A DNA stretch of 64,000 nucleotides, taken from NCBI GenBank assembly GCA_963825135.1, contig CAWGRW010000009.1, forward strand, positions 2,656,001 through 2,720,000, read 5' to 3'. Under the pieces are notes generated by a model. The model saw nothing but the letters and a program-made list of their open reading frames with translations. It ran no database searches and was not told the origin of the DNA. Positions 41,569-64,000 of this stretch are shown here, one piece after another (the stretch's first letter is position 1; each line of letters begins with the position of its first letter). This stretch comes from an uncultured bacterium. Its GTDB lineage: Bacteria; Desulfobacterota_D; UBA1144; Nemesobacterales; UBA2774. The position numbers and the translations under genes were made by a program.

Positions 41569-41575
41569 ATAATAT

Positions 41576-41824: not shown

Positions 41825-43612
41825 TCAGGGCAGCTTGTCTTTATCTACAATATAGTTCCCGAGCACGAGCAAATCCATCCCGCTCTTGTTAAACGAGTTA
41901 AACGCCTCTGCGGGCGTATTCACTATGGGCTCGCCTTTAAGGTTAAAAGAGGTGTTGAGCACGACAGGCACGCCCGTCGCGTCGCCGAACGCCTCGATCA
42001 GGCTGTAGTACTTCGGGTTTAACTCCTTGTTTACGGTCTGGAGCCTTCCGGTCCCGTCGACGTGGGTGATCGCCGGAAGGACGTCCCTCTTGTTTTCGCG
42101 CACGTCCGTGACGTACAGCATGAAGCGCGCCGGGTAGTGTTTCGCCGGATCGTCGAGCGCGAAATAGTCCCCCGCTTTCTCCACGAGCACCGAAGGGGCG
42201 AACGGCCTGAAAGGCTCCCTGAATTTTATCTTGACGTTCACGATGTCCTTCATGTCGGCCCTCCCGGGATCGGCTATGATGCTCCTGTTCCCGAGCGCGC
42301 GCGGACCCCATTCGAACCTGCCCTGGTGCCAGCCTATGACCTTTCCCCGCGCGAGGTTATCGACGACCCTCTCGATGAGCTTCCGGTCGTCCTCGATTCT
42401 TTCGTACGGTATGTTGTTTTCCTTGAGGAATTCCTCGGTATCGGAAGCGCTGTGCTCTTCTCCCCAGTACGCGTGCTCCATGACGAACTTCCTCGGCTGA
42501 CCGAGCAGAGCGTGATAACCGTAGAGGGCCGCGCCCAGGGCTCCGCCGCCGTCCCCCGCGGCCGGCTGTATATATATATCGTCAAACGGGGTCTCGGAGA
42601 GTATCTTCCTGTTCGCCACGCTGTTGAGTGCGACGCCCCCGGCCATGCAGAGCTTGCTCAGGCCCGTCTCCCTGTGAGCGTACCCCGCCATCTTGACCAT
42701 TATCTGCTCCGTCACCGCCTGAATGCTCGCGGCGATGTCGGCGTAGTACTGGTTCTGTATCCCGAGCTCGTCGTAATTGGAAGGCTTTTCCCCGAAATAG
42801 GACGGGTATCCGGTCGAGGGGGTGAAGAAGTGCGCCTTCTGGTCCCTCGGGTTGCCGAACAGTTTTTCGAACTTCTTGTTGAAGGTCTTTTCAGACGAAT
42901 AATGAAAACTAAAATAATCCATATCGAGCTCGAACCCGCCGTCGTCGTCCACGTGGACGAGCTCGTAGATCTTGTCCACGTATTTAGGCTGGCCGAAGGG
43001 CGCCATCCCCATCACTTTGTATTCACCCTCGTTCACCTCGAAGCCGAGGAACGCCGTAAACGCGCTGTAGAGAAGCCCGAGGGAGTGCGGGAACCTTATC
43101 TCCTTAATCAGCTTTATATCGGTCCCTTTGCCCACGCCTATGGCGGCCGTCGTCCATTCGCCCACGCCGTCGACGGTCAGAATAGCGGCTTCCTCGAACG
43201 GAGAGCAGTAGAAACTGCTCGCCGCGTGCGAGAGGTGGTGCTCGCTGAACAGCACCTTCGAGGCGGGCACGCCGAGCTTCTTAAGGAGCAGGTGCTTTAC
43301 CCAGAGCTTGTCTCCGAGCCAGGTGACCATCGCTTCCCTGAAGAGCTTCATCGAGCGCGGGAACGAATACATCGAGCAGAGCAGCAGCCTCTCAAACTTG
43401 ATAAAGGGCTTTTCAAAAAACATCACGTAGTCGACGTCGCCCACCTCTAATCCCCCCGTCTCGAGACAGAACTCAATCGCGTTCTCGGGGAACTCGTAGT
43501 CGTGCTTAATGCGGCTGAACCTCTCTTCCTCAGCCGCGGCGACGAGCACTCCGTCTTTTAGAAGCGCAGCTGCGGCGTCGTGAAAATAACATGATATTCC
43601 AAGGATATTCAT
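41825..43612 (-). CDS. O-carbamoyltransferase, NodU/CmcH family
   Basis: HDAAA, EEERFSR.KH, EHHLSHAAS, GEYKVMG, GPRALGNRS, FRPFAPS and LNTSFN..GEPIV. Confidence 0.96.
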   Translation of the reverse strand: MNILGISCYFHDAAAALLKDGVLVAAAEEERFSRIKHDYEFPENAIEFCLETGGLEVGDVDYVMFFEKPFIKFERLLLCSMYSFPRSMKLFREAMVTWLGDKLWVKHLLLKKLGVPASKVLFSEHHLSHAASSFYCSPFEEAAILTVDGVGEWTTAAIGVGKGTDIKLIKEIRFPHSLGLLYSAFTAFLGFEVNEGEYKVMGMAPFGQPKYVDKIYELVHVDDDGGFELDMDYFSFHYSSEKTFNKKFEKLFGNPRDQKAHFFTPSTGYPSYFGEKPSNYDELGIQNQYYADIAASIQAVTEQIMVKMAGYAHRETGLSKLCMAGGVALNSVANRKILSETPFDDIYIQPAAGDGGGALGAALYGYHALLGQPRKFVMEHAYWGEEHSASDTEEFLKENNIPYERIEDDRKLIERVVDNLARGKVIGWHQGRFEWGPRALGNRSIIADPGRADMKDIVNVKIKFREPFRPFAPSVLVEKAGDYFALDDPAKHYPARFMLYVTDVRENKRDVLPAITHVDGTGRLQTVNKELNPKYYSLIEAFGDATGVPVVLNTSFNLKGEPIVNTPAEAFNSFNKSGMDLLVLGNYIVDKDKLP

Positions 43613-47495: not shown

Positions 47496-48171
47496 TTAGA
47501 GTATCTCCCTCATCTCCGCGTTGAAGACCTCGCCGAAGGAGCGTACGAAGGAGCGCGTGACGACTCCGAAGTCTATCTCCTCTCCGAGAATGTCCTTTAA
47601 CGACGTAATCATCACCCCCTCGAGGCCGCATGGGACGATCATCGAGAAAGTAGCTCAGGTCCGTGTTCACGTTAAACGCGGAGCCGTGCATCGTTATGCC
47701 GCCGCTCACGGAAACCCCTATCGACGCTATCTTCCCCCCGTAGGCCCACACGCCGGGATACCCGTCCATGGTCACGCCCTTTATGTCGTAATCCCCGAGC
47801 ACGCGGATTATCGTCTCCTCGAGCGCGCGGACGTACGCCTTCGCTCCGAGTCCGAATGAACGGAGATCGATTATCGGGTACGCGACGAGCTGCCCCGGGC
47901 CGTGGAAGGTAACGTCCCCTCCCCTCTCCGTCTTATATGTCTCGACGCCCCGCTTGCCGAGCTCGTCCTCGGAGAGGATTATATTCCCCCCGCGCCCGAA
48001 CCTGCCGTCCGTGATGACGGGCTCGTGTTCCAGCAGAAGGAGATACCCGCCCGCCCCCGGCCCTTCCCTGCGGAGCCTTTCCCGGCGCTCTTTCTGGAGC
48101 GAGAGTCCGTCCCGGTAGCGGACTGCGCCCAGGTACTGCCATCTTATCGTTCCTTTCGCGCCGGAGTCCAT
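47496..48171 (-). CDS. lipB: Lipoyl(octanoyl) transferase (frameshift near 47647)
   Basis: LLEH, RGGDVTFHGPGQLVAYP, KIASIG and HG.AFNV; the conserved IVPCG resumes in a shifted frame and ends at TAA 47496. Confidence 0.92.
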
Positions 48172-48304
48172 GACCCGGTAGAGTCTAAACTATCGCCCGC
48201 CGCTTTCCACTCCGCTTGCCTCCCGCCGGGTACTCGAATATACTGACCTCGAAACGGTCCCCGGTAAAACGGGCGTCGTTTTTGTCCCCGCAATCCCCAC
48301 GACC

Positions 48305-49309
48305 ATGAAACAAAAACCGGGAAAAAAATCAGGCGCCGAAGAATTCTCCGGCTATCTCGCCTCGGGCGCACCCGCCCCGGTGCTCGTATTCACCGGAGAC
48401 CAGCCCTATCTCATGGACAATGCCGTCGCCGGTCTCAGGCAGACCGTCCTCGGCCCGTCGGGAGACGTCAACTACATAGTATTTTACGGGGAAAGCGCTT
48501 CGGGCAGGGAGATTGCCGACAACGCGAGCACCTACCCGATGTTCTCCAAAAAAAAGCTCATCGTTGTGAAAAACGCGGAGAAGCTCCCGGCGAAGGAGCT
48601 TTCGGCGCTCGAGCCCTACTTCGCGTCCCCGTCCCCGGCCTCCTGCCTCGTGCTCATGTTCTCAGACGGCAAGAAGCCGAAGCTCGGCGGCGGGAAGAAC
48701 GTGACGGCGTTTGACTTCTCTCTGGAGAAGGGGAACACGGCGTCCGCCGTCAGGGAGGAGGCCGGGAAGCTCGGATACGAGATAACGAGGGCGGGCGCTG
48801 AGGCGCTCATAGGCCTCGTCGGGGACGACCTTCAGGAGATACACAACGAGCTCGTTAAGATTTCCATATACAAGGGCGACAAAAAGACCATAGGCCCCGA
48901 GGACGTGGAGGCGCTCACGAAGAAGACGAAATTCGCCGACATATATCAGCTCATCAACGCCATATCGCGGAGGGACAAGCGGACCGCGCACAGGGTGCTC
49001 GGCGAGCTAGAGGCTGCCGGCGAGGAGCCGCTTTCCATACTCGGGCTCATAAGCTGGAGGTTCAGGCTCATATGGAGGGCGAAGGAGCTTCAGGACAGGA
49101 GGCTCGGCCAGGCCGAGATGTTAAAGGAGCTCAAGATCTCTCCCGGGCAGTTCTATTACCTGGGCGAGGACCTGAAAAAGTTCAGCTACGCGGACATAGC
49201 GCGCATAATGGAGGCGCTTGCCGAGTGCGACAAGAAGCTCAAGCTGAGTTATGTGCCCAGGAGCTTCATGCTGACGAAGCTCGTCATCGAGCTGTGCGCC
49301 AGGGGCTGA
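48305..49309 (+). CDS. holA: DNA polymerase III subunit delta
   Basis: 'PMFSKKKLIVVKNAE' and 'NELVKI'; typical length; adjacent to rpsT. Confidence 0.88.
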   Translation: MKQKPGKKSGAEEFSGYLASGAPAPVLVFTGDQPYLMDNAVAGLRQTVLGPSGDVNYIVFYGESASGREIADNASTYPMFSKKKLIVVKNAEKLPAKELSALEPYFASPSPASCLVLMFSDGKKPKLGGGKNVTAFDFSLEKGNTASAVREEAGKLGYEITRAGAEALIGLVGDDLQEIHNELVKISIYKGDKKTIGPEDVEALTKKTKFADIYQLINAISRRDKRTAHRVLGELEAAGEEPLSILGLISWRFRLIWRAKELQDRRLGQAEMLKELKISPGQFYYLGEDLKKFSYADIARIMEALAECDKKLKLSYVPRSFMLTKLVIELCARG

Positions 49310-49316
49310 GGGGGTG

Positions 49317-49607
49317 CTAGGAAGCGGGGGCCGATGCCGATTTTGAGAGCTGATGCACCCTCTTGGCGAGCCTTCCGGTCTTGCGCGAGGCCGTTTTCTT
49401 GTGCATTACGCCCTTGGACGCCGCCTTCTTGAGCCTCGATTCCGTTTCCCTGAGGATACCTTCCGCGGCCTTTTGATCCCCGTTGTCTATGAATGCGGTG
49501 ATCTTCTTTACCTGAGTCTTCAAGTCCGATTTTACTATGGTATTCCTGTCCCTTCTCTTGATGCTCTGACGGTGCTGCTTTATTCCGGATTTAATTCTTT
49601 TAGCCAT
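49317..49607 (-). CDS. rpsT: 30S ribosomal protein S20
   Basis: IKSGIK..RQS..RR.RN and KGVMHKKTASRK. Confidence 0.95.
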   Translation of the reverse strand: MAKRIKSGIKQHRQSIKRRDRNTIVKSDLKTQVKKITAFIDNGDQKAAEGILRETESRLKKAASKGVMHKKTASRKTGRLAKRVHQLSKSASAPAS

Positions 49608-49765
49608 TAATATGTATCCCTCCCGCGGATAATCCCGTTAATTTTGCCGGGAATCGGGGATTTGTCAAATGATTCCGGGCGGAATCGGGCATATACACAC
49701 TCGATTATTTTATTGCCCGGGCGAATTATGGTATATTCCACCTCAATTTACGGAAGGAGGCCCGG

Positions 49766-50413
49766 ATGAAATTCTTTCTCGATACCGCGAATCTAGACGA
49801 GATCAGGGACGCCGCAAGCTATGGCGTGCTCGACGGCGTGACGACGAACCCTTCCCTCGTGTCCAAGGAAGGCGAGCAAAAAGGGTTCAGGGACTTAGTC
49901 AGGGAGATATGCGAGATCGTCAAGGGGCCCGTGAGCGCCGAAGTTTTATCGACCGACATAGAGCGCATGCTGGACGAGGCCCGTGAGCTGGCAGGGATAC
50001 ACGAGCACGTCGTGGTGAAGATGCCGATGACCGAGGACGGCATAAAGGCGACGAAGATAGTCTCGGACGAAGGCATAAACGTGAACGTTACGCTAATATT
50101 CTCACCGTCTCAGGCGTTAGTCGCCGCCAAGGCCGGGGCCGCCTACGTGAGCCCGTTCGTAGGCCGCCTCGACGACATATCCGAGTTCGGGATGGAGATG
50201 GTCGGGGACATAGTGCAGATATTCGGCAACTACAATATAAAGACGGAAGTGCTCGTCGCGAGCGTGAGGCACCCCTTACACGTAGTCGAGGCGGCTAAAA
50301 TGGGTGCTGACGTCGCGACCATGCCGTACAAGGTGTTCAAGCAGCTCATCAGGCACCCGCTCACGGATATAGGATTGGAAAAGTTTTTAGCAGACTGGGG
50401 AAAGGGTAAATAG
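49766..50413 (+). CDS. fsa: Transaldolase / fructose-6-phosphate aldolase (TalC/MipB family)
   Basis: [26 protein letters not shown] and HPLTD.G. Confidence 0.95.
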
Positions 50414-50427
50414 CCCGGAGAGCGCGT

Positions 50428-51196
50428 TTAATCATCCTTCCCCTTAACAGCCGCGATCAGGAATTCCTTATTGCCCTCGGCCCCTTCTATGGGCGAGGGG
50501 ATGACGCCTAAAACCCCGACCCCGAGACCCTTGACGAATTCGGTAATTTTATCGACCACCTCCCTGTGCTTGGACTCGTCCCTCACTATTCCGCCCTTCC
50601 CCACCTCGCCCTTGCCGACCTCGAACTGGGGCTTTATGAGCGCGATGAGTACGCCGCCCGGTTTGATGAGCGCGAGAGCGGGAGGAATGATCATAGTGAG
50701 CGAGATGAATGAGACGTCGATTACCACTATGTCGGCGGGCTCGGCTGATGTCAGCGGGCTTAATGTAGCGGGCGTTTAACTTCTCCCTGACCACGACGCG
50801 GGGGTCCTGCCTCAGCTTCCAGTCGAGCTGTCCGTAGCCGACGTCTACCGCGTAAACTTTTGCCGCCCCGTGTTTGAGCAGGCAGTCGGTAAAGCCCCCG
50901 GTGGAAGCGCCTATGTCCACAGCCGTACAGCCCGCCGGGTCTATGCCGAATTCCTTTAACGCCGCTTCGAGCTTGAGACCGCCCCGGCTCACGTATTTGA
51001 GCGCGGCGTCCCTGAGCGTCACCTCCTGACCGTCCTTCACGAGAGCGCCCGCCTTGTCCGTCCTCACGCCGTCCACGTACACGTCCCCGGCCATTATCAC
51101 GGCGCGCGCCTTTGACCTCGACTCGGTAAGCCCCCTCTCGACGAGGACCGTATCGAGCCTCTTTTTAACAGCGGCGCGTTTATCTGTTTTGTTCAT
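50428..51196 (-). CDS. tlyA: TlyA family rRNA 2'-O-methyltransferase (frameshift near 50747)
   Basis: S4 domain, YVSRGGLKL and DIGASTGGFTD; DVSFISL, LIKPQFE and GNKEFL are in a second frame. Confidence 0.92.
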
Positions 51197-52092
51197 CAGT
51201 GATTTCTGCAGCCGAGATAGAGCGCAATCTGTCTTAGGGGCTCGGCCCTTTCGTCGAACTCCGCCAGGGCGAGGACCGCCTGACGCGTGAGCTCGGAGGC
51301 CTTTGCTTTCGATTCCTCGATCCCCGCGACTCCGGGGTGGGTGGACTTGCCGTGCCTCTCGTCGTTCCCCCTCTCCTTCCCGAGGTCCCCTTCCCCTTCT
51401 ATGTCGAGTATGTCGTCTATTATCTGAAACGCGAGCCCGACGGACTCGGCGTAGGAGGCGAGCATTTCGAGCTGGTTCTTGTCGGCCCCGCCTATCCGCG
51501 CGCCCGCCGTGACCGACGCCCTTATCATCGCCCCCGTCTTAAGCGCGTGCATACGCTCGACCCGGGGGAGCGTTACGTCTTTAGTCCCGGCGAGTGCGAG
51601 GTCCATCACCTGCCCCTCTATCATCCCGCGGGAGCCGGCGGCGAGGGCTATGTCGCCCGCGACGTCGCATATCACCTGCGCGCTCACGCCCCTCGCGAGC
51701 CCTTCGGTGACCAGCATCCCGAACGCGTCGGTGAGGAGCGCGTCCCCGGCCAGTATCGCGGTCGATTCGCCGAACACCCTGTGGTTCGTAGGCACGCCCC
51801 GCCTCATCGCGTCGTCGTCCATCGAGGGCAGGTCGTCGTGTATGAGCGAATACGTGTGTATCATCTCTATCGCGCAGGCAGCGGGCATGACCTTTTCGGT
51901 GTCGGCCCCCACGGCCTCTCCCGCCGCTATGGCGAGTATCGGGCGGAGCCTCTTGCCCCCCGCAAGGGCGCTATACCGCATGGACTCCAGCAGACGCGAC
52001 TGACTCCCGCCCCCGGCCAGAAGGAGCATGTCGAGCTCCCTGTCCACGAGCTCACGGTTTTTCTTGAGATAGGCCTTGATATCGAATGCCAT
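51196..52092 (-). CDS. ispA: Farnesyl/geranylgeranyl diphosphate synthase
   Basis: GGKRLRP, LIHDDLPSMDD, KTGA and FQIIDDILD. Confidence 0.95.
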   Translation of the reverse strand: MAFDIKAYLKKNRELVDRELDMLLLAGGGSQSRLLESMRYSALAGGKRLRPILAIAAGEAVGADTEKVMPAACAIEMIHTYSLIHDDLPSMDDDAMRRGVPTNHRVFGESTAILAGDALLTDAFGMLVTEGLARGVSAQVICDVAGDIALAAGSRGMIEGQVMDLALAGTKDVTLPRVERMHALKTGAMIRASVTAGARIGGADKNQLEMLASYAESVGLAFQIIDDILDIEGEGDLGKERGNDERHGKSTHPGVAGIEESKAKASELTRQAVLALAEFDERAEPLRQIALYLGCRNH

Positions 52093-52098
52093 GACGGG

Positions 52099-52326
52099 TC
52101 AGATCTCGGGCTCGAAATCCTCTAATGCAGTCTCGCCGTTCTTCTCCACGAGTATCTCGACTTTCTTCCTGATTTCATTCAGCTTTTTCTGGGAAAAGGA
52201 GATGAGCTCCGTCCCCTCCTGAAAGAGCTTTATCGAGTCCTCGAGCGGCAGGTTCCCGCTCTCGAGCTTCTTTATGATTTCTCTCAGCTCCCTCAAGGCG
52301 TCCTCGAATTTCATCTTGGATTTCAT
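52099..52326 (-). CDS. xseB: Exodeoxyribonuclease VII small subunit
   Basis: FEDAL.EL..II..LESG.LPLEDSI.LF.EG; conserved xseB-ispA order. Confidence 0.95.
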   Translation of the reverse strand: MKSKMKFEDALRELREIIKKLESGNLPLEDSIKLFQEGTELISFSQKKLNEIRKKVEILVEKNGETALEDFEPEI

Positions 52327-52441
52327 AAGGAGGTATTTTATCTTTGAAGAGGACTCCGCACAAGACGGCGGAACCCCGGCGTATATAAGGCGTCCGCGTT
52401 TCGCCGGGCAAGAGGGCTATATTTACCGCCCTTCAGGGAAT

Positions 52442-52475
52442 AAAAAAAGGGCGGTACGCATAGAGCGCCCGCCCC
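52442..52475 (-). terminator. Intrinsic terminator
   Basis: GGGCGG...CCGCCC stem followed by T7 on the minus strand. Confidence 0.7.
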
Positions 52476-52526
52476 GGTTATTCGTTAATTGACGTTAACC
52501 TCGGTCAACGAGTGTCGTTTCTATGC

Positions 52527-52820
52527 CTACTGCGCCTTCTTTTCCGCGTCGTCGGCGGCGCTGTCGGGCGCTGCGTCCTGGACTGATTCGACGGTCTCAT
52601 CGACCTCTACCTCGTCCACTTCCACTTCGGTTCCGCTCGTATCCTGTACCGTGGTCTCCGCGCTTGGCTCCGCCATGCCTTGATCGGCGGGGGTTTCCAC
52701 CTCATCGACTTCTACCTCTTCCACCTCGGCAGGCTCCTCGGCCTGTTTGCAGGCGGCCACTCCCAAAACGAGCACGCTCGCGCAAAGAATTATGAAATAC
52801 CTGCTGAAAATCGACTTCAT
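52527..52820 (-). CDS. Small acidic, probably disordered lipoprotein
   Basis: AAGGAGGT RBS before MKSIFSR, lipobox VAAC and repeated EVEVDEVE. Confidence 0.75.
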   Translation of the reverse strand: MKSIFSRYFIILCASVLVLGVAACKQAEEPAEVEEVEVDEVETPADQGMAEPSAETTVQDTSGTEVEVDEVEVDETVESVQDAAPDSAADDAEKKAQ

Positions 52821-53044
52821 ACCCGTACCTCCTTTGTGAAATTGAATTCCTGTCCGGGGGGTGTGCGGCCCCCCGGTAGTGAAACAACATACTATATTTA
52901 TATGCCTAAATCCATATCTTTTCACACCATTCCGTATCGGCCTCAGGGCCGGGATTTTCTCTTGAAAAACAAACGACTTCCGGCGGCGGGTGAGCACCCG
53001 CGGGCATACGATCTCTACATCCCTCCGGCTCAATCAACTGCTCA

Positions 53045-53586
53045 AGCCCAACCCGTTCGTGCTGAGCTAGTCGAAGCACGTTACCGACATTACAGAATTT
53101 GCGGCACACAATGTGTGCTCATATACGATTCTTCCGTAACTCCTCTGCCATCGCCAGGGAACGAGCCCAACCCCTTCACCCTGAGCCTGTCGAAGGGTGA
53201 TTATTTCCCGACATTACAGAATTTGCGTGAAGAAAATCGATTGTACGAGCGTTAAAAATCTTACGTGGGGTGGGGTAGAATTGGAAGATTTAGCGAGTAC
53301 ATGAGATTTTTAGCACAATTCTGTAGTCGGATGATTTTTGCTTCTTTTCATCAAGGAAAAGAAGGATAATAAAACAGCCTCTCACCTTTCTAGTCTTTTC
53401 ATAAAACACACTACATGTGTGTCACGATTGATGATAGAGATCGGGTGTTTATCACCCCCACCTATATCCTCCCCCCTCAAGGGGGAGGAAAGGAATATAG
53501 ATCGCGGCTGGAAGCCGCTCCTGCAAATTTAGGAGTGTCATTTCACAAACCCGTCCGTCCTGAGCTTGTCAAAGGATGAACGGGTT
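53045..53586. repeat. Cluster of several REP-like palindrome families plus a 123-bp TIR element
   Basis: Three CTGAGCnnGTC(G/A)AAG-type palindromes, CCTCCCCC/GGGGGAGG, GCGGCT/AGCCGC and CTTCTTTTC/GAAAAGAAG. Confidence 0.8.
53208..53330. mobile_element. MITE-like 123-bp element, copy 1
   Basis: Imperfect terminal inverted repeats CCGACATTACAGAATT / AATTCTGTAGTCGG; near-identical copy at 55490..55612. Confidence 0.6.
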
Positions 53587-53682
53587 TACCACCCTGCCCC
53601 GCCTACCCTCATCAGAGGAACCGGGGACGCAATCCCATTTTAATAGACAGCCGGGAGAAATTATCATATTATTCCCGAATCT

Positions 53683-55397
53683 ATGAAAACGGCACAAGAT
53701 CTCAGGGAAGCGCTCAGGAAAATAGACGGCAGGGGTTACGCCTCGTATAAGGACATCGCGGGGGAATACGGTTTCGACGAGTTCATCCTCTACGTAGACC
53801 GCGTGCAGGGGGACCCGTTCGCCTCCCCTTCCCGCGTGAGGGCCAGGGTCTATCAGGATACGGCCCGGTTTCCGAAGGACGCCTACACGGGCAAGAGCCG
53901 GGAGACCGCGCTCAGGGACTTCATAGCCAGGGCGTTCGGCTTCGCGGCGGAGAGGTTTTCGCTCGGCAGCAGGGGCAGCGGCGGGAGCGGCCTCGTAACG
54001 ATGAGCAGACCGGGCCAGGAGATACTCGAGCGCTCGTCGGTAGTCGTCACGCACCTCTACGCGGAGGCGAGGTTCGGTATGGGGCTTCCCGCGTTCGGCC
54101 GCTCCGTCGCCGGGAAGCACGCGGAGGCGATGTTCTTCGAGGAGCTCCCGAAAATAGTCAGGTTTTCGATGATCTTCGGGAACCTCGACCGGGACGCGCT
54201 CTACCGGCACATAGAGACGGCGGAGGACGCGGACTTCCTCAGGAACGAGATAGAAGGACTCGGCTGCGTCGCTTTCATAGCCGAGGGAAGCGTGCTCCCC
54301 CGCGCAAGCGGCGTGGACCCGGGGCCGATGAGCGCCGGGGAAGCGGTCCCGTTCGAGTCCCCCCCTTCGCTCAGGATGGACGTGGAGCTCCCGAACAGGG
54401 GACAGATCACCGGCATGGGGATACCCAAAGGCGTGACTCTCATAGTCGGGGGCGGGTATCACGGCAAATCGACCCTCCTCGAAGCGGTATCCGAGGGCAT
54501 ATACAACCACGTACCGGGGGACGGGCGCGAGTTCGTGGTCGACGAACCCGAACGCGGTCAGGATAAGGGCCGAGGACGGGCGAAGGATCGAGAAAGTGGA
54601 CATATCCCCCTTCATATCGAACCTGCCCTACGGGAAGGACACGAAGTCGTTCTCGACGGAGGACGCGAGCGGGAGCACGTCTCAGGCGGCCAACATCCTC
54701 GAATCCCTCGAAGCAGGGGCGCACGTGCTGCTCATCGACGAGGACACCTCGGCAACTAACTTCATGATAAGGGACCACCGGATGCAGGAGCTGGTATCGA
54801 AGGACAGGGAGCCTATAACGCCGTTCATAGACATGGTGAGGAGCCTCTACACTGACCAGAGGGTCTCTACGGTGCTCGTGATGGGGGGCTCGGGGGACTA
54901 CTTCGACGTGGCGGACCACGTCATATGCATGACGGATTATAAATCGTCGGACGTCACGAAGGAGGCGCTCGGGATAGCGAAGCGGTTCGCGAGCGAGAGG
55001 AAGAAGGAAGGGGCGGGCCCGATCGGGAGGGTGACGGACAGGATACCCCTTTCGGGGAGCTTCGATCCGGGCAAGGGGAAGAAGGACGTGAAGATCTCGG
55101 CCAAGGGGCTCCGCTCCATACACTACGGGAGGCACAAGATAGACCTCCACGCCGTCGAGCAGCTCACGGACGTATGCCAGACGGCGGCCATAGGGGACGC
55201 GATAGAATACGCGCGGCGTTACATGGACGGGAAGAGGACGCTCCGGGAGGTCTCGTCGCTCGTGATGATGGACATAGCGAGGGACGGCCTCGACGTGATA
55301 AGCCCCCGCGATTTCCGGGAACTACGCGGAGTTCAGGAAGATAGAGCTCCTGGCCGCGATAAACCGGCTGAGAACGCTGGAAGTCACGCAGAAGTAA
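53683..55397 (+). CDS. Predicted ABC-class ATPase (ABC_ATPase / MRB1590-like); frameshifts near 54540 and 55320
   Basis: VQGDPFASPSR, LPRASG and GGGYHGKSTLL, then ASGSTSQAANI and LIDEDTSATNFMIRD, ending AINRLRTLEVTQK*. Confidence 0.88.
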
Positions 55398-55407
55398 CCG
55401 CTCTTCT

Positions 55408-55729
55408 GTCATTCCCGAATTCCTTAATCGGGAATCTCGTCTTTTAAACCCGTTCGTGCTGAGCTTGTCGAAGCACGCATTTTTTCTTCCCGACATTACA
55501 GAATTTGCGTTAAGAAAATCGATTGTACGAGCGTTAAGAATCTTACGTGGGCCGGGGTAGAATTGGAAGATTTAGCGAGTACATGAGATTTTTAGCCAAA
55601 TTCTGTAGTCGGATGATTTTTGCTTCTTTTCATCAAGGACAAAGAAGGATAAAAGAACAGTCTTTGCACCTTTCTTTGTCTTTTCATAAAACCACACTAC
55701 GTGTGTTCATCAAGGAAAAGAAGAAATAA
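55408..55729. repeat. Second REP cluster, including MITE-like copy 2 (55490..55612)
   Basis: Direct repeat of about 210 bp matching 53207..53420, preceded by the same CTGAGCTTGTCGAAG palindrome. Confidence 0.8.
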
Positions 55730-55831
55730 CATTTGCCTTTCTATATCATTCCAAGCTGCGAAGCAGACGTGGCGATCTGTCTTTTTTCTTGAGATTACCC
55801 GCTGACAATCATATGTTGCGTATACCTGTTT

Positions 55832-56773
55832 CTACCCGCCGTACGCGGCGACTGTGATCTTCATCACGTCGACGTTCGACTGTTTGCCCGGCGGCGTTCG
55901 GGACGATGATCAGGGAGACGAGACCCCGGCCTTTCTGTAGGCCTCGAGCCTCTCCCTGCACCTCTCGGCGGGCCCTACCAGCGCGACCGCGTCTAACATC
56001 TCGTCCGAGAACACCTCGGCCGGGTCCGCGCCGCCCTTTATCCTGTCGATCACGTCGCCGAAGCCGTTATTCGTCATGAGCCTCTGATAGAACGGGAACC
56101 GTAGATATCCCGAGAGTCCGCGCTTGCCCGCTTTTCTGGCGAGCTCGAGGTCGTCCGATACGACGGACGGTATGCCGAGCGTGATGTCTATTTCCGACGG
56201 GTCTCTGCCCGCCGCCTTCGCTCCCTCGGCCACCCAGCCCGCGAGCTTCTTTATGTATTCCGGCGTGGACATGTAGGGCATTATGCCGTCCGCGACCTCG
56301 CCCGCGAGCCCGGCCGCCCCCTTCGCGAGCCCGGCGATATACACGGGCACCTTGGGAAGCTCGCGCTTGAGCGTGAGCTGGGGCGCCGTCCCGTCCATGA
56401 ACGATTTCACAGCCTTCACGTATCCCCTCATCTTCTCTACCGGGTCCCCCATTACTATCTCGTACCTGTCGTTCACGGGCTTGTGGCTTACGCCGAGACC
56501 CAGCACCATCCGTCCGCCCGATACTTCCTGGATCGTCATCGCAGTCGCGGCGACCATGACCGGCTGGCGCATGTAGATGTTCGTTATCCACGTTCCGACC
56601 TTGATCCCGGTCGTCGCCTCGGCGAACACCTGCGCGTTCGCGAGCCCGTTATAGGGCGGCACCTCGGGCGAGAATATGGCTTCGAAGCCTCCTGATTCCG
56701 CTTCCAGTGCGAGCGCGCGGAGGTCCGATACGCTGCATCCCCATACGGGGGAAATCGTGGCTATCCTGGGCAT
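55832..56773 (-). CDS. LLM-class (luciferase-like) flavin/F420-dependent oxidoreductase; 3' end disturbed by indels
   Basis: AE..GF, ATT.IKVGT, SGGRMVLGLGVSH, AGEVADG and LVGPAERC. Confidence 0.85.
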
Positions 56774-56810
56774 AGTATTTCTCCTTTAAAGTGTATCCAG
56801 TCTTTTATTA

Positions 56811-57708
56811 TCAATACTGGTTTATGACTTCCCTGTAAAAATCGGGCCTGAGAAGGGACTCGTCCCCGCTCGCGATGCACCGTCCTTATCTTGCTTAGCA
56901 CCTCTTCCTTGTCCCCGGGGAACCTGGCCTTCACGGGCAGGTAGTTCGAGATGTGGTTCGAGAAGAAGTACCCGTCCGTAAGCTCGGTGTTCTCGACGAG
57001 TATTTCGAGCTCCTTTATCATCCGGAACTTGTCCGGAAGCTCGAACTCCCCCCTCTCCCACTCCTCGTACACGGGCGCTCCGGGCCTCAGCTGAAGCGAC
57101 AGCGCCCCCACGTACTCCGGGTCGCACGCGGTAAGAAGTTTTCCGGTCGCCTCCGCGTGCTCCGCGCTCCTCTCCACTCCGCCCATGCCGAGGAGCACCA
57201 TCGCTGAGTTCATTACCCCCGCTTCCTTTAGCATGTGTGATGCCTTCACGGTCTCGGCGAAGTTGGCCCCCTTCTTAATTCTTTCAAGGACAACGTCGTC
57301 CCCGCTCTCGAATCCGATATACACCATGTCGAGTCCGAGGGCCCTCAGCTCTTTCAGGTTCTCGACCCCTTTCCTGAGAATATCGCCGACATTGGCGTAC
57401 ATCCTTATGCGTTCCAATCCGGGAGCTTTTTCCCTGAGGTATCCCATAATATCGATGAGCTTCTTCTGCGCGAGCACGAGCGCGTTGCCGTCGGCTATGA
57501 ACACGCGGTCGTCAATGAGGCCGGATTCGGCAGCCTCGTCTATTATCCGCTTTACTTCTTCCATGGGGCGGGCGCGGAACTTCTGCTCCTCCCCCCTGTA
57601 CATGGCGCAGTAGGTGCACTGGTTGTGAGAGCACCCTATCGTCGCCTGGAGTATGAAGCTATTGCCCTCGCTGGGCGGCCTGAAGTATGGCGTTACGTAT
57701 TCTATCAT
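56811..57708 (-). CDS. Radical SAM protein; frameshift near 56878
   Basis: FRPPSE...QATIGCSHNQCTYCAMY (CxxxCxxC), G.ESGDD and SNHISNY. Corrected end ..LRPDFYREVINQY*. Confidence 0.9.
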
Positions 57709-57839
57709 ACTATTAGTATTAACTATTTTTTAGAACTTTGCAAACCCGGCCCGCACAATCAATACGGTATTAAGCGGATTATTCGGCAATACTCAGCATG
57801 TAAAATCATCTTACTTCATGGCTTAAATATAGTCTTATT

Positions 57840-59044
57840 CTACGTTCTTTTAAAAACGCAGCTCAACTTGCGCCCCACATATCTTAGTATTACTTTAAAG
57901 TAATTGTATGCATCCATTATAGAAGGTATCGGGTCCCGTATCGATAGGACGGCAAAGGTATTTACACCTCTGATTGAATTGAGCCACTCTTTGAGTGTTA
58001 ATTCGCCTCTATTATAATATGCTCTCGATGCCAGAAGGTCTCTCCCGAAAGAAATCCATTTGACGCCGGTATGCTTTGGTGCTGTATAGGGCGGCAAGTG
58101 CATATCCAGAGCATCACAATACATCGTATATAATATCGGTACTCCGCTGGCTTCAACTTGACCTATGCTCGTATTCGGCCGTCCGACATCCGGTTCTATT
58201 ATAAAATGTTTGCCGCTCTTTTCATCGATTTTTATTTCGAGAGATATGATTCCTTTGTATTGAATACCACTATATATATCAATTGATTCTCTCGGGACCG
58301 GATCATTAAGACAATTTTCTACTAAACTTGCTTCCCCCAATTCTATAGGCCATTGCCGCAGCTTGCGCGATGTATAATTGATTATCCGCTCATGGTTCTT
58401 ATCAAAATAGTAATAGTATTGGTATATATTAGAATCTTTCCCGTCGATCCATTCCTGGATGATGAAGGTGTCAGCCGCCCTTAAGCAATTATCGTATACG
58501 GCATACAGTTCTTCCGGGCTTCGTATTTTTAATACCCTTTTGTCGAAGTATTCGGACCAAGTTTGTGTCGGCCTGGGCGGTTTTACTATGCATGGGTATG
58601 TCACTCTGTTCGCTATCTCTTTTATGTCCGATTTATTACTGATAAGCAAGTGGGGGGTATTGAGAAACCGCCACGCGTCAGGTACTGGTAGAGCTTAACC
58701 TTGTCTATAAGCAAATCAATAACTTCGTGGTCGGCGATTACAAATCCATACCAGTCCTTAAGCGCTTCTCTAAATCCGGATACGGCGAGAACGCTATCGT
58801 CACTGCACGGAAAAAGCGCGGACTTTCCTCCTAATTCTTTACCCAGTTTCAGTAATGTATTTATCAGTTCTTCATTTGATGTGTTAGCAGTTAGAACTTT
58901 TTTACATGAATTAGTCCTGCAGCAAAAATTATCGGGGTTATCCGCAATACCAATTACCGGTATTCCGTATCGAGCCAATATCCTGGATGTTTGCAAACCT
59001 GTGACCGAGTCAAGTTTGATAATTACGGCATGCGGTCTCTGCAT
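57840..59044 (-). CDS. ATP-grasp carboxylate-amine ligase (D-aspartate ligase-like); frameshift near 58660
   Basis: N-half 'GL...R.L...GIPV...LFPCSD...DK..LY'; C-half 'YPCIVKP', 'IIQEWIDG', 'RKLRQWP', 'LEIK.D......IIE...R'. Confidence 0.8.
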
Positions 59045-59130
59045 TATTTCTTGGCGTCCCCATATAATTGTAGTGCCGGCGGAGGAAACAAAGGTCTTCG
59101 CGCGTTATGAAATATTCCGGATTTTTATAA

Positions 59131-60283
59131 TCAAAAATCATGTAAATAAATCATCTTATAATCCCAGCTGGTTGAATCGAGTAAATTCAGGCCTTGAAAT
59201 TCAAGCTTATTATTATCTTTACCCAAGAGCCGGATCAAAATAGTTCGATGGGGGTTTTTTACGCTTTTTGCGGAGCTGTCTTCTTTAAATCCCTTCGATA
59301 CTAAAAAATCATAGCTGTCCCGGTCCAGCATATCCGCCCAGGTTGAAATTGATCCGTAATCTATGAGCGACATCAGGGTATTTAAGAGCTCGATTTTTAT
59401 TGAGGAGTCGGCCGCCTCTAATTCAAATAAATTATGCGCGCCTCCGGATTCCATACTGTATATATGGCTCTGTAAGGTAAGATAGCCTTTTAAGCAATCA
59501 TCATACCAGTACAGGAAAAGGTATTTTGAAAGCGGGTTGTTGTATCTCCAGCGAAAAAACTGCTCATCCCTTACCTGTGTAATTTTGTTTTCGGGGAGTG
59601 TGCTGTCAACGAGGAGGGCCATTTCCGCCGGTTTGGGTTTATCGTCTATCGTTATGCGGGGAGGAAGCTGAGTCCCCGGATTATGACAGATCATATCGAT
59701 TCTTTGTGAATTGTTCCTTTCGCTCCTTTTCAAGAACATGCCGATCCCGGCCTTTCTCAATAATCTTTCTGGCGTACGGACCTGCCAATTTCTTAGCTAG
59801 TGTCATTGCCCTTGATTCAATTGTTCGGAATTGCTTTTTCATAATCTTAATTTGTCCAACGCTCTTCCAACCCCTGGATAATGAAATCATAGCGTTTAAG
59901 GGGGTCGCATTGAAGCTAAAAAAGTGTTGAGCTCCCATCCTCTCCAAATCTTCCAAGACGAAGTTAGCCAGCTCTTTGTATATACCCCTGTTTCTGTATC
60001 CCTCCAGTATCAGGAGGTCCGCAGAACATAACGCGCTAAAATGAGCCGGCGCGTCTTTTATCCGCCAAGTACTTTCATACACGCCCGCCATTGCCACAAT
60101 CTTATCTCCCGCACGAACAAAATATATTATGGGTTGTTTAGAATGGGGCCGGTCTATGTAGTTCCATTTTACATAGGACCTGAATACATCAAAATCCAGA
60201 CCCCAGTTGATCGTCTTGAGCCTGGCGATTTGATCAATTTGGTTTTCAAAATCATCGGAATATCTTAAAATTTCATGTTTCAT
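59131..60283 (-). CDS. GNAT-fold acyltransferase (tandem GNAT-like); frameshift near 59720
   Basis: 'W.Y...P', 'ADLLILEGYRNRGIY' (motif A) and 'RDEQFFRWRYNNP'. Confidence 0.75.
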
Positions 60284-60319
60284 TTGGGCGCAGCCGGGTC
60301 AGGGCATAGAACACTGAAT

Positions 60320-60580
60320 TTATGTTCCGTAACTCTTTACGAAATTTAATATGCTGTCTACGGTGTCCCATTCCTTCATGAAGTCGATGGTCGTCAGGTC
60401 TAGTGGAGCCCGGACTTCCTCCTCAATCAGCAGCGCCAGCTCCAGCAAATGGAGGGATTCCAAGAGTCCGGAAGTTAAGAGCGGCGTGCTGTCGTCGAAT
60501 TCTTCGGGAAGAGACTTTCCGGAGTCCTTAATTTTAGCATCGATAAAATCGGCGAGTATTGTTTTAAAATGTCCTGACAT
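60320..60580 (-). CDS. Acyl/peptidyl carrier protein
   Basis: Acidic 86 aa with 'DDSTPLLTSGLLESLHLLELALLIEE...DTVDSILNFV'; phosphopantetheine Ser in an ESL context. Confidence 0.85.
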   Translation of the reverse strand: MSGHFKTILADFIDAKIKDSGKSLPEEFDDSTPLLTSGLLESLHLLELALLIEEEVRAPLDLTTIDFMKEWDTVDSILNFVKSYGT

Positions 60581-60590
60581 TTGAAAGTCC

Positions 60591-61599
60591 TTAAACCGAA
60601 GTGTCGAGCTCCTTCCAGCTCACGGGTTTTGCCATTGCAACCACGACCTTTCTCCGGCCCGAAAACGGCTTCCTACCGTGAGCGACGAGCATATTGTCCA
60701 ACACCAGAAGATCGCCCGGCTCCCATCTGAAAGCAACTGTCGCTGAATCATATGCTTTCCTCAGTTCGTCAATCACGTCCTTGCCGATTCTCGTACCGTC
60801 GCCATAGTAGGTATTGTTCGGAAGGTCTTTCTCTTTGAAGAATTTAAGAAGCATCTGCTGCAGTTTCGGCTCTATTGCATATACGTTAAGCACGGCAGCA
60901 TGGTTGAGCCACAGCATTTCTCCGGTAACGGGGTGCTTCGCGACCGCGGGCCTAAGCTGTTTCGTTCTTACTTTTTTCTCGTCCATCCATTCAAAATCCG
61001 TCTCCGATTCTTTACAGAACCTTTCCATCTCGGCTCTGTCCTGTGTTTGGTAAACTTCCTGCCACGTAAAGCCGAAAGGTCCGCCGGCCAGATTTCTGAC
61101 ATATAAAACACCTTTCTCCTCGAACGGTTTTCTTATCGAGGGGTCTATCCGTTCGTAGACCTTCCTTACGTCCGCTATCGGCGTTTCCCCCCCATTTTCA
61201 GCGGCCTCAATACAGTAAAAGAAAATCCTCATCGGGAATTTTGCGGCGAATGAGCTTTCGTTATGAAGAATTATCTCCAGCTCCGGCGGGTAATTGGTAG
61301 CCGTGTATACATTGCCTTTGACCTGAGTCCTGTGAGTGGCCCTGTCGTTATAATCAATCAGGCCTCCGTAGCAGTCCCTGACCGCCGATTCAAAGTCCCC
61401 GATGCCGTCGATGCGAAACCCCCTGAACAATATCCCCCCGTGTTTTAATAAATTCGCTTCTATTTCGTTTTGATTTAATTTGAGAAAATCGTTTAAAGCC
61501 AGTCCTCCCGCGCTTCGGGGTAACGACAAGCGCCAGTTTTTTATCGTCGTCAAAAAAACCTGTATTTACTTCGATGTTTTCATTAATTCCGATTGTCAT
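60591..61599 (-). CDS. TauD/TfdA Fe(II)/2-oxoglutarate dioxygenase, SyrP-like; frameshift near 61515
   Basis: GGILFRGF, HNE facial-triad motif, GGETPIAD and DNMLVAHGR.PF.G.R. The N-terminus MTIG...LALVVTP lies in another frame. Confidence 0.9.
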
Positions 61600-61792
61600 A
61601 CCTACCCTTGTTTTCCAATCGAAGGAAGGAATAGTCAGTAAGCACGAATCATTATGCTTCTTTCATAAAATTAGTGAGCAATAACGCTTATTATTTGAAT
61701 TTTACTGCTTTGTCGGTATTTATCAACTTTCGAGCCCCATAAACAGGTCCGGCTCAAAAGACAGGCAGTTACAGCATGTTAAGGAGTTACTC

Positions 61793-61873
61793 GTTGTGGG
61801 AGCACCCTATCGTCGCCTTGAGAATGAAGCCATTCCCCTCGCAGGGCGGCCTGAAGCATTGGCATTAAGTATT
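61793..61873 (-). pseudogene. Decayed copy of the radical SAM gene 5' end
   Basis: Translates as FRPPCEGNGFILKATIGCSHNE*, versus FRPPSEGNSFILQATIGCSHNQC in the intact gene. Confidence 0.8.
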
Positions 61874-62014
61874 TATATGAATATTGCGACTCCCGGGCAG
61901 ATTGCCAAACCCCGGACTGCAGGCGATGAACCGCTCAAAGTATGCTATAGTCCATGAAGATTATTGTTTGTGAGCGGTAGCATGGTACTCATCAGGCCGA
62001 TATAGGATACCGCA

Positions 62015-62875
62015 ATGCCGATCGATAAGCTCATCAATGTTCTAATCACGATAACTCTCTTCGAGATGATGGTGGCCATCGGCCTGAGCGTGAGCATTAA
62101 AGAGCTAATCGGCGTCGCCGGGAACCTCCGCCTCGTGACGCGGGCCGCGCTGGCGAATTATGTTTTCGTCCCCATAGCCGTTCTGGCTTTATTGTCTTTA
62201 TTTCATCCCGATCCCCTGGTTGCCGCGGGGTTTCTCATCGTCGCCGTATGTCCGGGGGCACCCTACGGGCCGCCCTTCACAGCTATCGCCAAGGGCAATG
62301 TATCGGCGGCGGTCGGCCTGATGGTAATTCTCGCCGGATCGTCCGCAGTCCTCGCCCCGGCACTCCTTTATTTCCTCCTGCCCCTCATGGGGGGAGGCGG
62401 AACGCTGAGCGTGGATGCGGGCAGGATCCTGATCACGCTTCTCATGACCCAGCTCCTGCCTTTATGTATCGGGCTCTTCATTCGACACCGTCGTCCTGAC
62501 ACCGCCGCAAGGCTCCGGAAACCGTTTACCCAGCTAAGCAAGGTCCTCAATCTTCTTGTGCTCGGCTTTATCCTTGTAGTCCAGTTCCATGTGCTCTCTG
62601 CAGTCAGACCGAGAGGTTACGCCGGGATGATCGCGCTCCTGGTCCTTTCACTTGCGGCAGGGTGGCTTCTGGGCGGACGCGAGAGCGCCAATAGGAAAGC
62701 TATGGCGCTTGCTACATCAGTTCGGAACGTCAGCGTGAGCCTCGTGATTGCGACCGGGAGCTTCCCCGGCACGCCGGCTGTCACGGCGGTGCTGGTATAT
62801 GGCATCTTCCAGACTTTAGCATCGGCCCTGATTGCACTCGGATGGGGCCGACTGAGCAAGGAGCCGCATCCGTAG
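62015..62875 (+). CDS. Bile acid:sodium symporter (BASS) family transporter
   Basis: M.AIGL, ANYV.VP, CPGAP, AKGN and RNVSVSLVIA; multi-TM. Confidence 0.9.
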   Translation: MPIDKLINVLITITLFEMMVAIGLSVSIKELIGVAGNLRLVTRAALANYVFVPIAVLALLSLFHPDPLVAAGFLIVAVCPGAPYGPPFTAIAKGNVSAAVGLMVILAGSSAVLAPALLYFLLPLMGGGGTLSVDAGRILITLLMTQLLPLCIGLFIRHRRPDTAARLRKPFTQLSKVLNLLVLGFILVVQFHVLSAVRPRGYAGMIALLVLSLAAGWLLGGRESANRKAMALATSVRNVSVSLVIATGSFPGTPAVTAVLVYGIFQTLASALIALGWGRLSKEPHP

Positions 62876-63079
62876 CGGGAATTATAACCCTATGACGGCA
62901 AAGATTCCGGCAGTTCGGCTCGTTCAAACCGTTAAACAGAAAGTTGCCCATTGTGTTGACTCATGCATATCAATTATAATAATTCCTAATAAGCGCTGAT
63001 AGCTATTCAATCATTCTCCGATTGATGCGGGTTGTGTATTAATCTTGAATAGGCCGGGGAAAAAGGAGCATGCATTCAG

Positions 63080-64000
63080 ATGAAAATTAAACCCGTAACC
63101 AAAGAAGAGAGGCGTAAACAGGGAAAAGCCCTTCGCGAGAAGTGTCCGCGCTCCTCACACGCGGAATGGAATCCGCAGCCGCGCCCTCAGACCGTCGCTG
63201 ATCTTCTCGAAGAATCAAATGCCGACAGGATCCCCGGACTCATCGCAATCCGCTACGGCAGGATGGCCCAGACTCCATTCACCTTCTTCCGCGGCTCGGC
63301 CATCATACAGGCGCGCGACCTGATCAATTCTCCGAACTCGGGTATCACCGTTCAGGCCTGCGGCGACTGCCACCTGATGAATTTCGGCGGCTTCGCTACG
63401 CCAGAGCGGAACCTTGCATTCGATATCAACGATTTCGACGAGACTTTTCCGGCTCCGTTCGAGTGGGATATAAAGCGGCTTGCGGCGAGCATCGTGGTAT
63501 GCGCCAGGGAACGGGACTTCTCAAAAAAGGACGCGGATAAAGCCGTCGGGGCAGCCGTCGAGTCGTACAGAACGCGTATGTCGGAATACGCCGATTTGAC
63601 GCTTTTAGAGCTCTGGTACTCGAAAATCACCTTAGACGACATGATGGAGGCTTTTAAAGAGCATGAGGACACGGTAAAAAGGATAGAGAAGAAGAAAGAG
63701 GAAGCGCAGTCCCGAACCTCCGAGGCTTTATTTCCCAAGCTTACCGATGTCAAGGACGGATTAAGAAGGATCGTGGATAACCCTCCGTACATCTTTCATT
63801 TCAAAGAGAACGTTCCGGAGTTCGAAAAGGCCGCAATTAAGTTCAGGGAGCACTACGAGAAAACGCTGCAATCAGACCGACGGATTTTATATAATCGCTA
63901 CATCCCCGAAGACATAGTGGTAAAGGTCGTCGGAATCGGCAGTGTGGGCACACGATGTGTTGTCTCATTGCTGCTTGCGGATGAGAATGACCCTCTATTC
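63080..64000 (+). CDS. DUF2252 family kinase-like protein (partial, runs off the window edge)
   Basis: Manual translation MKIKPVTKEERRKQGKALREKCPRSSHAEW...IRYGRMAQTPFTFFRGSA...CGDCHLMNFG...FDINDFDE...KVVGIGSVGTRC. Not in the ORF track. Confidence 0.9.
   Translation, partial: MKIKPVTKEERRKQGKALREKCPRSSHAEWNPQPRPQTVADLLEESNADRIPGLIAIRYGRMAQTPFTFFRGSAIIQARDLINSPNSGITVQACGDCHLMNFGGFATPERNLAFDINDFDETFPAPFEWDIKRLAASIVVCARERDFSKKDADKAVGAAVESYRTRMSEYADLTLLELWYSKITLDDMMEAFKEHEDTVKRIEKKKEEAQSRTSEALFPKLTDVKDGLRRIVDNPPYIFHFKENVPEFEKAAIKFREHYEKTLQSDRRILYNRYIPEDIVVKVVGIGSVGTRCVVSLLLADENDPLF

Follow-up and report, generated by a model that had tools for sequence, protein, structure and literature searches.

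What might a carrier protein do when it is encoded far from any assembly line, in the company of a hydroxylase, an acyltransferase and a ligase? This question is raised by a low-GC islet in a 64,000-nucleotide (nt) stretch (the window, by which we mean the whole of the DNA analyzed) of contig CAWGRW010000009.1 from an uncultured bacterium, where genes for a TauD-family oxygenase, a small carrier protein, a GNAT protein and an ATP-grasp ligase follow one another on the minus strand. To our knowledge, carrier-protein chemistry outside the nonribosomal peptide synthetase (NRPS) and polyketide synthase (PKS) lines is known from few systems, such as Dlt and the side chain of butirosin. The first-pass annotation of this DNA had proposed a four-gene, NRPS-independent pathway that would load, hydroxylate and transfer an amino acid or acyl unit onto a lipid, a glycan or a small molecule. 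We found that the conserved unit is smaller, comprising the oxygenase, the carrier and a tandem GNAT, with the ATP-grasp gene as a frequent add-on, and that the islet was inserted at the 5′ end of a radical S-adenosylmethionine (SAM) gene, to which it brought a replacement 5′ end. As for its role, we give roughly even chances to the islet being a mobile cassette for carrier-mediated acyl tailoring of an envelope glycoconjugate; the cassette probably decorates a cell-surface sugar or lipid in a host that is an uncultured soil or sediment bacterium.

Gene content and distribution of the cassette

The genes for the oxygenase (61599..60591), the carrier (60580..60320, 86 amino acids [aa]), the GNAT (60283..59131) and the ATP-grasp ligase (59044..57840) all lie on the minus strand, with intergenic gaps of 10, 36 and 86 nt, and the islet has a GC content of 0.40-0.48 against 0.53-0.65 in its flanks. 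The layout of four co-oriented, close-set genes on a low-GC islet was therefore present as annotated. The carrier is encoded by a single open reading frame (ORF), and each of the other three genes is spread over two (61390-61599 and 60591-61553 for the oxygenase, 59681-60283 and 59131-59760 for the GNAT, and 58622-59044 and 57840-58649 for the ligase; see below). Neither the ORF list nor Pfam gave an adenylation, condensation or ketosynthase gene anywhere in the islet, which bears out the annotated lack of adenylation, NRPS and PKS genes alongside.

A synteny check confirmed that the four genes co-occur elsewhere. All of them are found in the window and in seven other loci (L002, L004, L005, L006, L102, L108 and L126), as single intact ORFs in each of these seven except L005, in which the first of the tandem GNAT copies appears broken. 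Five loci (L103, L104, L107, L129 and L131, with an identical TauD in L104 and L131) hold the TauD, carrier and GNAT genes without the ATP-grasp gene, and two (L003 and L007) show the GNAT, ATP-grasp and radical-SAM genes on contigs that end upstream; L127, L128 and L130 were too short to assess. The ATP-grasp gene is accordingly present in 10 of the 15 assessable loci and absent from 5. Two genomes with the trio, G097 (95% complete) and G098 (82% complete), gave no ATP-grasp homologue genome-wide at E ≤ 1e-20. TauD and the carrier, by contrast, are adjacent in every sufficiently long locus that carries this TauD clade. Of 101 genomes of the order, 12 have the TauD gene, as do 5 of the 9 other genomes of the genus; in one genome it is present twice, at separate sites. 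Of the pathway as it had been proposed, the recurrence of the full set stood, but membership of the ATP-grasp gene proved optional. Whether the window holds a remnant of a larger cluster had been raised as well, and its copy is indeed a reduced form of bigger islands in relatives, which add a second GNAT, a third GNAT paralogue, a PAP2-like membrane protein, glycosyltransferases and a sulfotransferase.

The cassette seems to be rearranged easily. The GNAT gene is duplicated in tandem in L002, L005, L006 and L108, and the third GNAT paralogue lies 3′ of the ATP-grasp gene in L005, L102 and L108. Broken duplicates of the carrier gene were seen 3′ of the ATP-grasp gene at L102:6227-6454, where the stretch bearing the active serine candidate is missing, and at L004:5529-5813, where the N-terminal half is garbled; these truncated or garbled ORFs, which could pass for a second acyl carrier protein (ACP), were discounted as carriers. 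Together, the carrier duplicates and the tandem GNAT copies indicate frequent duplication and recombination within the cassette.

A putative route of carrier-bound acyl transfer

The oxygenase belongs to PF02668 (150.8 bits against a cut-off of 27; E, 8.9e-44) and has 335 aa in relatives. Residues H112-N-E114, H307 and R309/R316 (L004 numbering), aligned with At3g21360, are nearly invariant and retained in the window copy, and we take them to be the iron triad and the 2-oxoglutarate (2OG)-binding arginine. The nearest sampled relatives, metagenomic proteins at 38 to 51% identity that were collected via a single peptide pattern, are mostly NRPS-linked: of their 74 loci, 62 have NRPS adenylation (A), condensation (C) or thiolation (T) domains, and among the 39 that span at least 8 kb the count is 37. 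A C domain is fused to TauD in six of the seven long relative ORFs scanned with Pfam, four of which contain full C-A-T-C-TauD modules. The cassette oxygenases form one clade (14 rows; SH-aLRT, 100) amid the NRPS-linked TauDs, on a stem of 0.93 substitutions per site, and an ESM Atlas look-up returned generic TauD clusters only. With kin that are linked or fused to NRPSs and no NRPS in the islet, the annotation of a SyrP-like, NRPS-independent oxygenase is supported. SyrP hydroxylates aspartate while it is bound to a carrier, and the adjacency of TauD and carrier, down to the 10-nt gap in the window, suggests by analogy that the cassette enzyme might be a SyrP-type hydroxylase of a carrier-bound aminoacyl thioester.

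Pfam assigned no family to the carrier even at E ≤ 10, and PF00550 was absent. A profile of the carrier family matched PltL, a peptidyl carrier protein (PCP), with an E value of 5.7e-6 over positions 3 to 79, nearly its full length. Ser42 of the GLLESL stretch pairs with the serine of ILNSM in PltL, presumably the site of phosphopantetheine attachment, and is invariant in 9/9 carrier homologues, within the motif TPL(I/L)TSGL(L/I)ESL. Against DltC models the protein scored 17 bits, with a cut-off of 68. The PltL match and the invariant serine agree with its first description as a carrier, and we regard it as a predicted type II PCP or DltC-like stand-alone carrier. Its top NCBIfam match, ACP_for_OlsHI, raised the possibility of a role in ornithine lipids. 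However, this match reached only 25 bits against a cut-off of 130, and passages of PMC12493201 name a GH3-like enzyme and an alpha/beta-hydrolase but neither a TauD nor a GNAT or ATP-grasp protein; the lead was dropped.

The GNAT matches PF00583 (25.2 bits against a cut-off of 20.7) and is 380 to 383 aa long in relatives. An AlphaFold2 model of the L004 orthologue (pLDDT, 82.4) has two GNAT domains with a helical linker between them. Its tail beyond residue ~352 is short; Eis-family enzymes carry a third, SCP2-like domain at the C terminus. The best Foldseek matches, with E values from 1e-12 to 1e-10, were the tandem GNAT of the clavulanate pathway (2wpx; E, 1.3e-12), Eis-like acetyltransferases and N-myristoyltransferases, each of which is an N-acyltransferase. 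The family is narrow, with 44 matches.

Genes found next to the cassette in other genomes provided a hint as to its acceptor. Immediately upstream of TauD, L005/L106, L103, L108 and L129 have genes for GT32-like glycosyltransferases and/or sulfotransferases; GT2 genes accompany a PAP2-like membrane protein in L005 and L108, and these islands variously add GT2, HTTM and GDSL proteins and a PAP2-like membrane protein of ~606-609 aa. Cassettes away from the radical-SAM site adjoin a ThiF/rhodanese gene. The glycan-gene neighborhoods point to the decoration of a glycoconjugate, and they make plausible the lipid or glycan acceptor that had been put forward from the window alone.

Glycan genes are also found in the window, in two stretches. 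One (9769-14445) holds two GT4 genes and an ATP-binding cassette (ABC) exporter, and the other (29959-43612) holds sugar-nucleotide dehydratases/epimerases, a dTDP-sugar epimerase, an adenosine 5′-phosphosulfate (APS) kinase and a carbamoyltransferase. This kinase would provide 3′-phosphoadenosine 5′-phosphosulfate (PAPS) for sulfotransferases like those flanking the cassettes of relatives.

From these elements we infer the substrate, the order of steps, the acceptor and the loading of the carrier as follows. The stand-alone carrier would bear an (amino)acyl thioester on its phosphopantetheine arm, and analogy to the oxygenase's NRPS relatives makes an acidic amino acid the most likely cargo. 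The SyrP-clade Fe(II)/2OG oxygenase would hydroxylate the tethered group, and the tandem GNAT would then move it from the thioester to an acceptor amine, probably that of an amino sugar or a lipid head group made by the GT32-like glycosyltransferases and sulfotransferases whose genes adjoin the cassettes of other genomes. The ATP-grasp ligase would play an accessory part, attaching one more carboxylate or amino acid that serves as a spacer on the acceptor or forms a second residue.

Several observations weigh against this envelope-tailoring role. No carrier-loading enzyme was recognized in the cassette loci, and the trio by itself includes no enzyme that adenylates or depends on ATP. Both the substrate and the acceptor are deduced, and the islet of the window has no adjoining glycosyltransferase, the nearest glycan genes being at least 14 kb off. 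The closest solved homologues of the oxygenase are At3g21360 (E, 2.8e-36), the entry name of which gives no function, and SqoD (PDB 9yut; E, 1.3e-31), which is described in PMC12951627 as a sulfoquinovose dioxygenase acting on the free sulfosugar; by their similarity, the cassette enzyme may act on a free substrate as well. The peptide pattern used to collect the NRPS-linked relatives biases their sampling, and our quick tree does not settle how the cassette clade branches among them. The Foldseek TM-scores of the GNAT are just ~0.5. Finally, the indels that split three of the genes may be real frameshifts in this copy (see below).

How the carrier is loaded is the point at which the first alternative departs from our reading. 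The ligase was recognized from its family; its two pieces gave no Pfam match above the cut-off (17-18 bits for the single sequence). A family profile matches D-Ala-D-Ala ligase and a carbamoyl-phosphate synthase (CPS)-like protein at an E value of 1.6e-6, and relatives carry precomputed PF02786 or PF13549 assignments. We collected 160 homologues of ~400 aa, the best of which is intact, 401 aa long and 90% identical. The names given to the family in the sources are “predicted ATP-grasp carboligase” and “D-aspartate ligase,” and the link to D-aspartate ligases of the Aslfm type consists of the JGI name on relatives of 37 to 41% identity and nothing else. Partners from the TauD, carrier and GNAT families occur only at the six closest of 80 ATP-grasp loci (60 to 90% identity); the other 74 showed none by phmmer at E < 1e-3. 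Sixteen loci of distant kin (≤51% identity) scanned with Pfam are glycan loci without a homologue of the cassette carrier, with genes for polysaccharide deacetylase, 2-hydroxyacid dehydrogenase, PEP-mutase-family (phosphoenolpyruvate mutase), GT2/GT4, Wzy_C, sulfotransferase and FemAB-like proteins.

These distant loci have a pattern of their own. A D-2-hydroxyacid dehydrogenase is present in 7/16, a PEP-mutase-family gene in 4/16 and a polysaccharide deacetylase in 4/16, and a recurrent set was seen at ~4000-9200 of each of L013, L028, L035, L047, L011 and L052, from Chloroflexota, Acidobacteriota and other phyla. This set may serve a phosphonate or hydroxy-acid decoration of glycans.

In the first alternative, the ligase would load an Asp/Glu-type amino acid as an acyl phosphate onto the carrier thiol, as in butirosin biosynthesis, after which TauD would hydroxylate it and the GNAT would off-load it onto an acceptor. 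Passages of PMC4431377 place BtrJ in an ATP-grasp clade with carbamoyl-phosphate synthases, and passages of PMC11350588 have BtrJ joining glutamate to the carrier BtrI via the side-chain carboxyl. The weak family matches of the cassette ligase are to CPS-like proteins, its gene is in the cassette at two thirds of the assessable loci and no cassette contains an A domain. Nevertheless, we find this arrangement rather unlikely: five loci keep the trio without the ATP-grasp gene, the 95%-complete G097 has the trio and no homologue of the ligase at E ≤ 1e-20, distant members of the ligase family reside at loci without a homologue of the carrier, and neither a BtrK-type decarboxylase, a BtrH-type transferase nor BtrG was found in the window or in the annotated cassette loci. 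Given its absence from 5/15 loci and from G097, the ligase is unlikely to be an obligatory loader. Of its annotated role as the activating enzyme, then, the precedent of BtrJ and BtrI remains, but the gene is dispensable. A complex prediction for the carrier and the ligase scored 0.00 in two runs, which speaks neither for nor against binding. AMP-binding enzymes are scattered at ~10 per genome in G000, G002 and G097, none adjoining the cassette, and loading in trans by one of these, or by the GNAT itself, is possible. A more specific version, which we consider doubtful, has an NRPS-derived pair of hydroxylase and free PCP, the PCP being aminoacylated without an A domain by an enzyme class that is not known for this role in such a context, either the ATP-grasp ligase (through an acyl phosphate) or the tandem GNAT (from an activated donor), and a beta-hydroxy amino acid placed on a sulfated envelope glycan, all packed in a small integrative cassette that circulates among Dadabacteria-like lineages.

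Insertion at the radical-SAM gene and broken reading frames

The insertion target is a radical-SAM gene (56761..57708, minus strand; PF04055; E, 2.1e-21) that is not a cassette member. A 71-nt direct repeat with 89% identity flanks the islet (57618-57688 and 61789-61859). Its distal boundary is a decayed duplicate of the radical-SAM 5′ end (61789..61877, minus strand), which reads FRPPCEGNGFILKATIGCSHNE followed by a stop on the minus strand, where the live gene has FRPPSEGNSFILQATIGCSHNQC; a remnant of identical type lies upstream of TauD in L002, L004 and L006. The proximal copy of the duplication comprises the first ~90 nt of the radical-SAM gene and ~45 nt upstream (to 57754). Three sites of the same genus (G003, G007 and G009:C17) have the radical-SAM gene and its luciferase-like monooxygenase (LLM) neighbor with a single 5′ end and no islet, and comparison of the empty G009:C17 with the filled L109 gave an insertion of 5216 nt plus a duplication of 132 nt that covers the radical-SAM 5′ end and the region before it. 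A gene of 527 aa located between a transporter and the radical-SAM gene in the empty site is missing from the window. Identity to the window is similar in the islet and in the flanks (89.3% versus 89.5% for L002 and 85.0% versus 87.7 to 88.0% for L004), which indicates that the insertion is old within the group.

Between the ATP-grasp gene and the radical-SAM start codon there is now a low-GC, islet-derived spacer (57709..57839, minus strand), with promoter-like hexamers at 57866-57826 on the minus strand that are a consensus match only. No integrase or recombinase was detected in the islet of the window among its ORFs and Pfam matches, and a phage-type integrase adjoins the cassette in L005 only. 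As to integration targets, the window has no tRNA or tmRNA, and Rfam gave no family in 55000-64000. The radical-SAM and LLM genes had been considered as pathway genes and were rejected, as both occur without the cassette in G003, G007 and G009:C17. A contig joint and loose ends at 61789/61856 are no evidence of excision, as they stem from contigs with the radical-SAM 5′ ends of relatives that aligned to the remnant copy. One bin, G009 (7% contamination), holds both an empty site (C17) and a filled one (C10, which is L109/L002), with shared flanks ~94-95% identical. This double site reflects either strain heterogeneity or a presence/absence polymorphism of the islet.

Are the genes of the window functional? 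Compared with the collinear, intact L004, the breaks are of single bases, namely, an extra A at ~61506 (TauD), an extra G at ~59765 (GNAT) and a missing base at ~58646 (ATP-grasp). An inserted islet in decay, with three real mutations, would account for three of the four genes being broken and for this being the most reduced copy, with one GNAT and neither the third GNAT paralogue nor the PAP2-like gene; in addition, the contexts of the two insertions (GGG[A]GG and AAA[G]ATT) are not plain homopolymer-length changes. However, apart from exactly one 1-nt indel each, the three genes are 75 to 100% identical to intact relatives, with no stop codons and no larger lesions. No sequencing run contains more than 18% of the sampled words of the islet, and no RNA run is listed among those that share them; in the contigs of relatives 88 to 99% alike, from four runs, those covering the breaks carry the frame-restoring indel in 4/4, 3/3 and 2/2 runs.

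Moreover, the same type of damage extends beyond the islet. Window-specific insertions of 1 to 2 nt were located in an LplA/B-like gene (47650), a TlyA/FtsJ-like gene (50747), an ABC_ATPase gene (54541 and 55309), the 3′ end of the LLM gene (55886/55912) and the radical-SAM gene (56876). The Pfam matches of the TlyA-like and LplA/B-like genes stop exactly at the indel, and the ABC_ATPase is intact in L004, as an ORF of 570 aa. Over 39.5 kb aligned with three genomes of the same genus, the window has 14 specific indels that are not a multiple of 3. Four are intergenic, and of the ten within or at the ends of genes seven fall at 47650-56876; none that breaks a frame falls at 32998-37405, and outside the damaged stretch the window is almost free of them. 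Since similar 1-nt indels break neighboring housekeeping genes, the frameshifts are probably consensus or assembly errors in a poor stretch at ~47.6-61.6 kb. The concern that they might signal decay thus loses most of its force, and we consider it unlikely that the cassette is here a dead remnant.

Two further features of the window were recorded. A nitrous-oxide reductase cluster at 2207-9598 comprises a NosZ-like protein (propeller and cupredoxin domains), NosD, an ABC ATPase and permease, NosL and a cytochrome c. An IPTL-CTERM sorting motif ends several proteins (24870-26303 and 39415-40114; also in L016 and L129), and the pair 39415-39669 / 39617-40114 is an apparent further split gene, with paralogous copies elsewhere in the genome.

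Relation to known systems

Some loci carry genes of a different kind next to the trio. In L102, L104 and L131, an APH/EcKL-type kinase and a major facilitator superfamily (MFS) transporter are located 3′ of the cassette. L107:2686-10443 (G007:C10), the second trio copy in its genome, continues with an ORF of 136 aa, a ketosynthase, a haloacid dehalogenase (HAD) phosphatase, a class-III aminotransferase and a split alpha/beta-hydrolase, and represents a different downstream chemistry on the same trio. With these neighbors, an oxygenase akin to NRPS tailoring enzymes and a GNAT resembling both Eis-type aminoglycoside acetyltransferases and the tandem GNAT of the clavulanate pathway, the cassette might make or tailor a diffusible small molecule (an N-acyl or hydroxy-amino-acid conjugate, a siderophore-like fragment or a resistance-type N-acylation of an aminoglycoside-like compound), but this is quite improbable, given that GT32-like, sulfotransferase, GT2 and PAP2-like genes recur beside the cassette in four other loci and that neither an exporter nor a regulator appears among the ORFs and Pfam matches of the islet in the window.

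If our preferred reading, acyl tailoring of an envelope glycoconjugate, holds, the cassette would represent a new route to hydroxy-(amino)acyl decoration of such molecules, a test case for the loading of a free carrier without an A domain and, with only three or four genes, a compact tool for acyl transfer from a carrier. It takes what look like an NRPS tailoring hydroxylase and a PCP-type carrier off the assembly line and joins them to a narrowly distributed tandem GNAT in islands of glycan decoration. It also illustrates how a small islet can enter a gene at its 5′ end and supply a new one.

Our literature search gave no publication naming ATP-grasp, acyl carrier protein, GNAT and TauD together, nothing relevant on Dadabacteria and nothing related on SyrP with carrier, TauD and ATP-grasp. 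The statement that the four-gene set is not a described pathway therefore stands for the combination, but not for its logic, which has a precedent in butirosin. There, the group that becomes the (S)-4-amino-2-hydroxybutyrate (AHBA) side chain is hydroxylated on a carrier and then moved to a sugar amine, with BtrK, BtrO/BtrV, BtrH and BtrG taking part. By analogy, the cassette appears closest in logic to BtrI/BtrJ, as judged from descriptions of the Btr proteins. Butirosin shares with the cassette a stand-alone carrier that holds an amino acid without an NRPS A domain and an ATP-grasp enzyme in the set, according to passages of PMC4431377 and PMC11350588. The cassette differs in several respects: its hydroxylase is an Fe/2OG enzyme of the TauD family, whereas that of butirosin is a flavin (LLM) monooxygenase; the transfer would be carried out by a tandem GNAT rather than by BtrH; there is no pyridoxal phosphate (PLP)-dependent decarboxylase and no gamma-glutamyl cyclotransferase; and the ATP-grasp gene is dispensable in one third of the loci.

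Other systems share fewer elements. The NRPS aspartate beta-hydroxylases such as SyrP have in common with the cassette the oxygenase family and its genetic coupling to a carrier, but the cassette has no NRPS, the partner is a free carrier of 86 aa and the oxygenase clade has a long stem of its own. In the clavulanic acid cluster the same three enzyme superfamilies are found (the CAS oxygenase, the tandem GNAT 2wpx and the ATP-grasp ORF17), but this cluster has no carrier and its chemistry is unrelated, the likeness being at the level of folds only (10% identity; TM, ~0.5-0.6). DltA-DltD and PltF/PltL share the serine motif G-(I/L)-L-(D/E/N)-S-(M/L) with the cassette carrier, and the cargo of Dlt ends on an envelope polymer. 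However, both Dlt and pyoluteorin biosynthesis load their carriers by an adenylating enzyme (DltA and PltF), of which the cassette has none. A free carrier, tailoring on that carrier and transfer to an amine are thus already known from butirosin and, more loosely, from Dlt; what is new in the cassette is the combination of enzyme families, the lack of a visible loader, the setting in glycan islands and the small integrative packaging.

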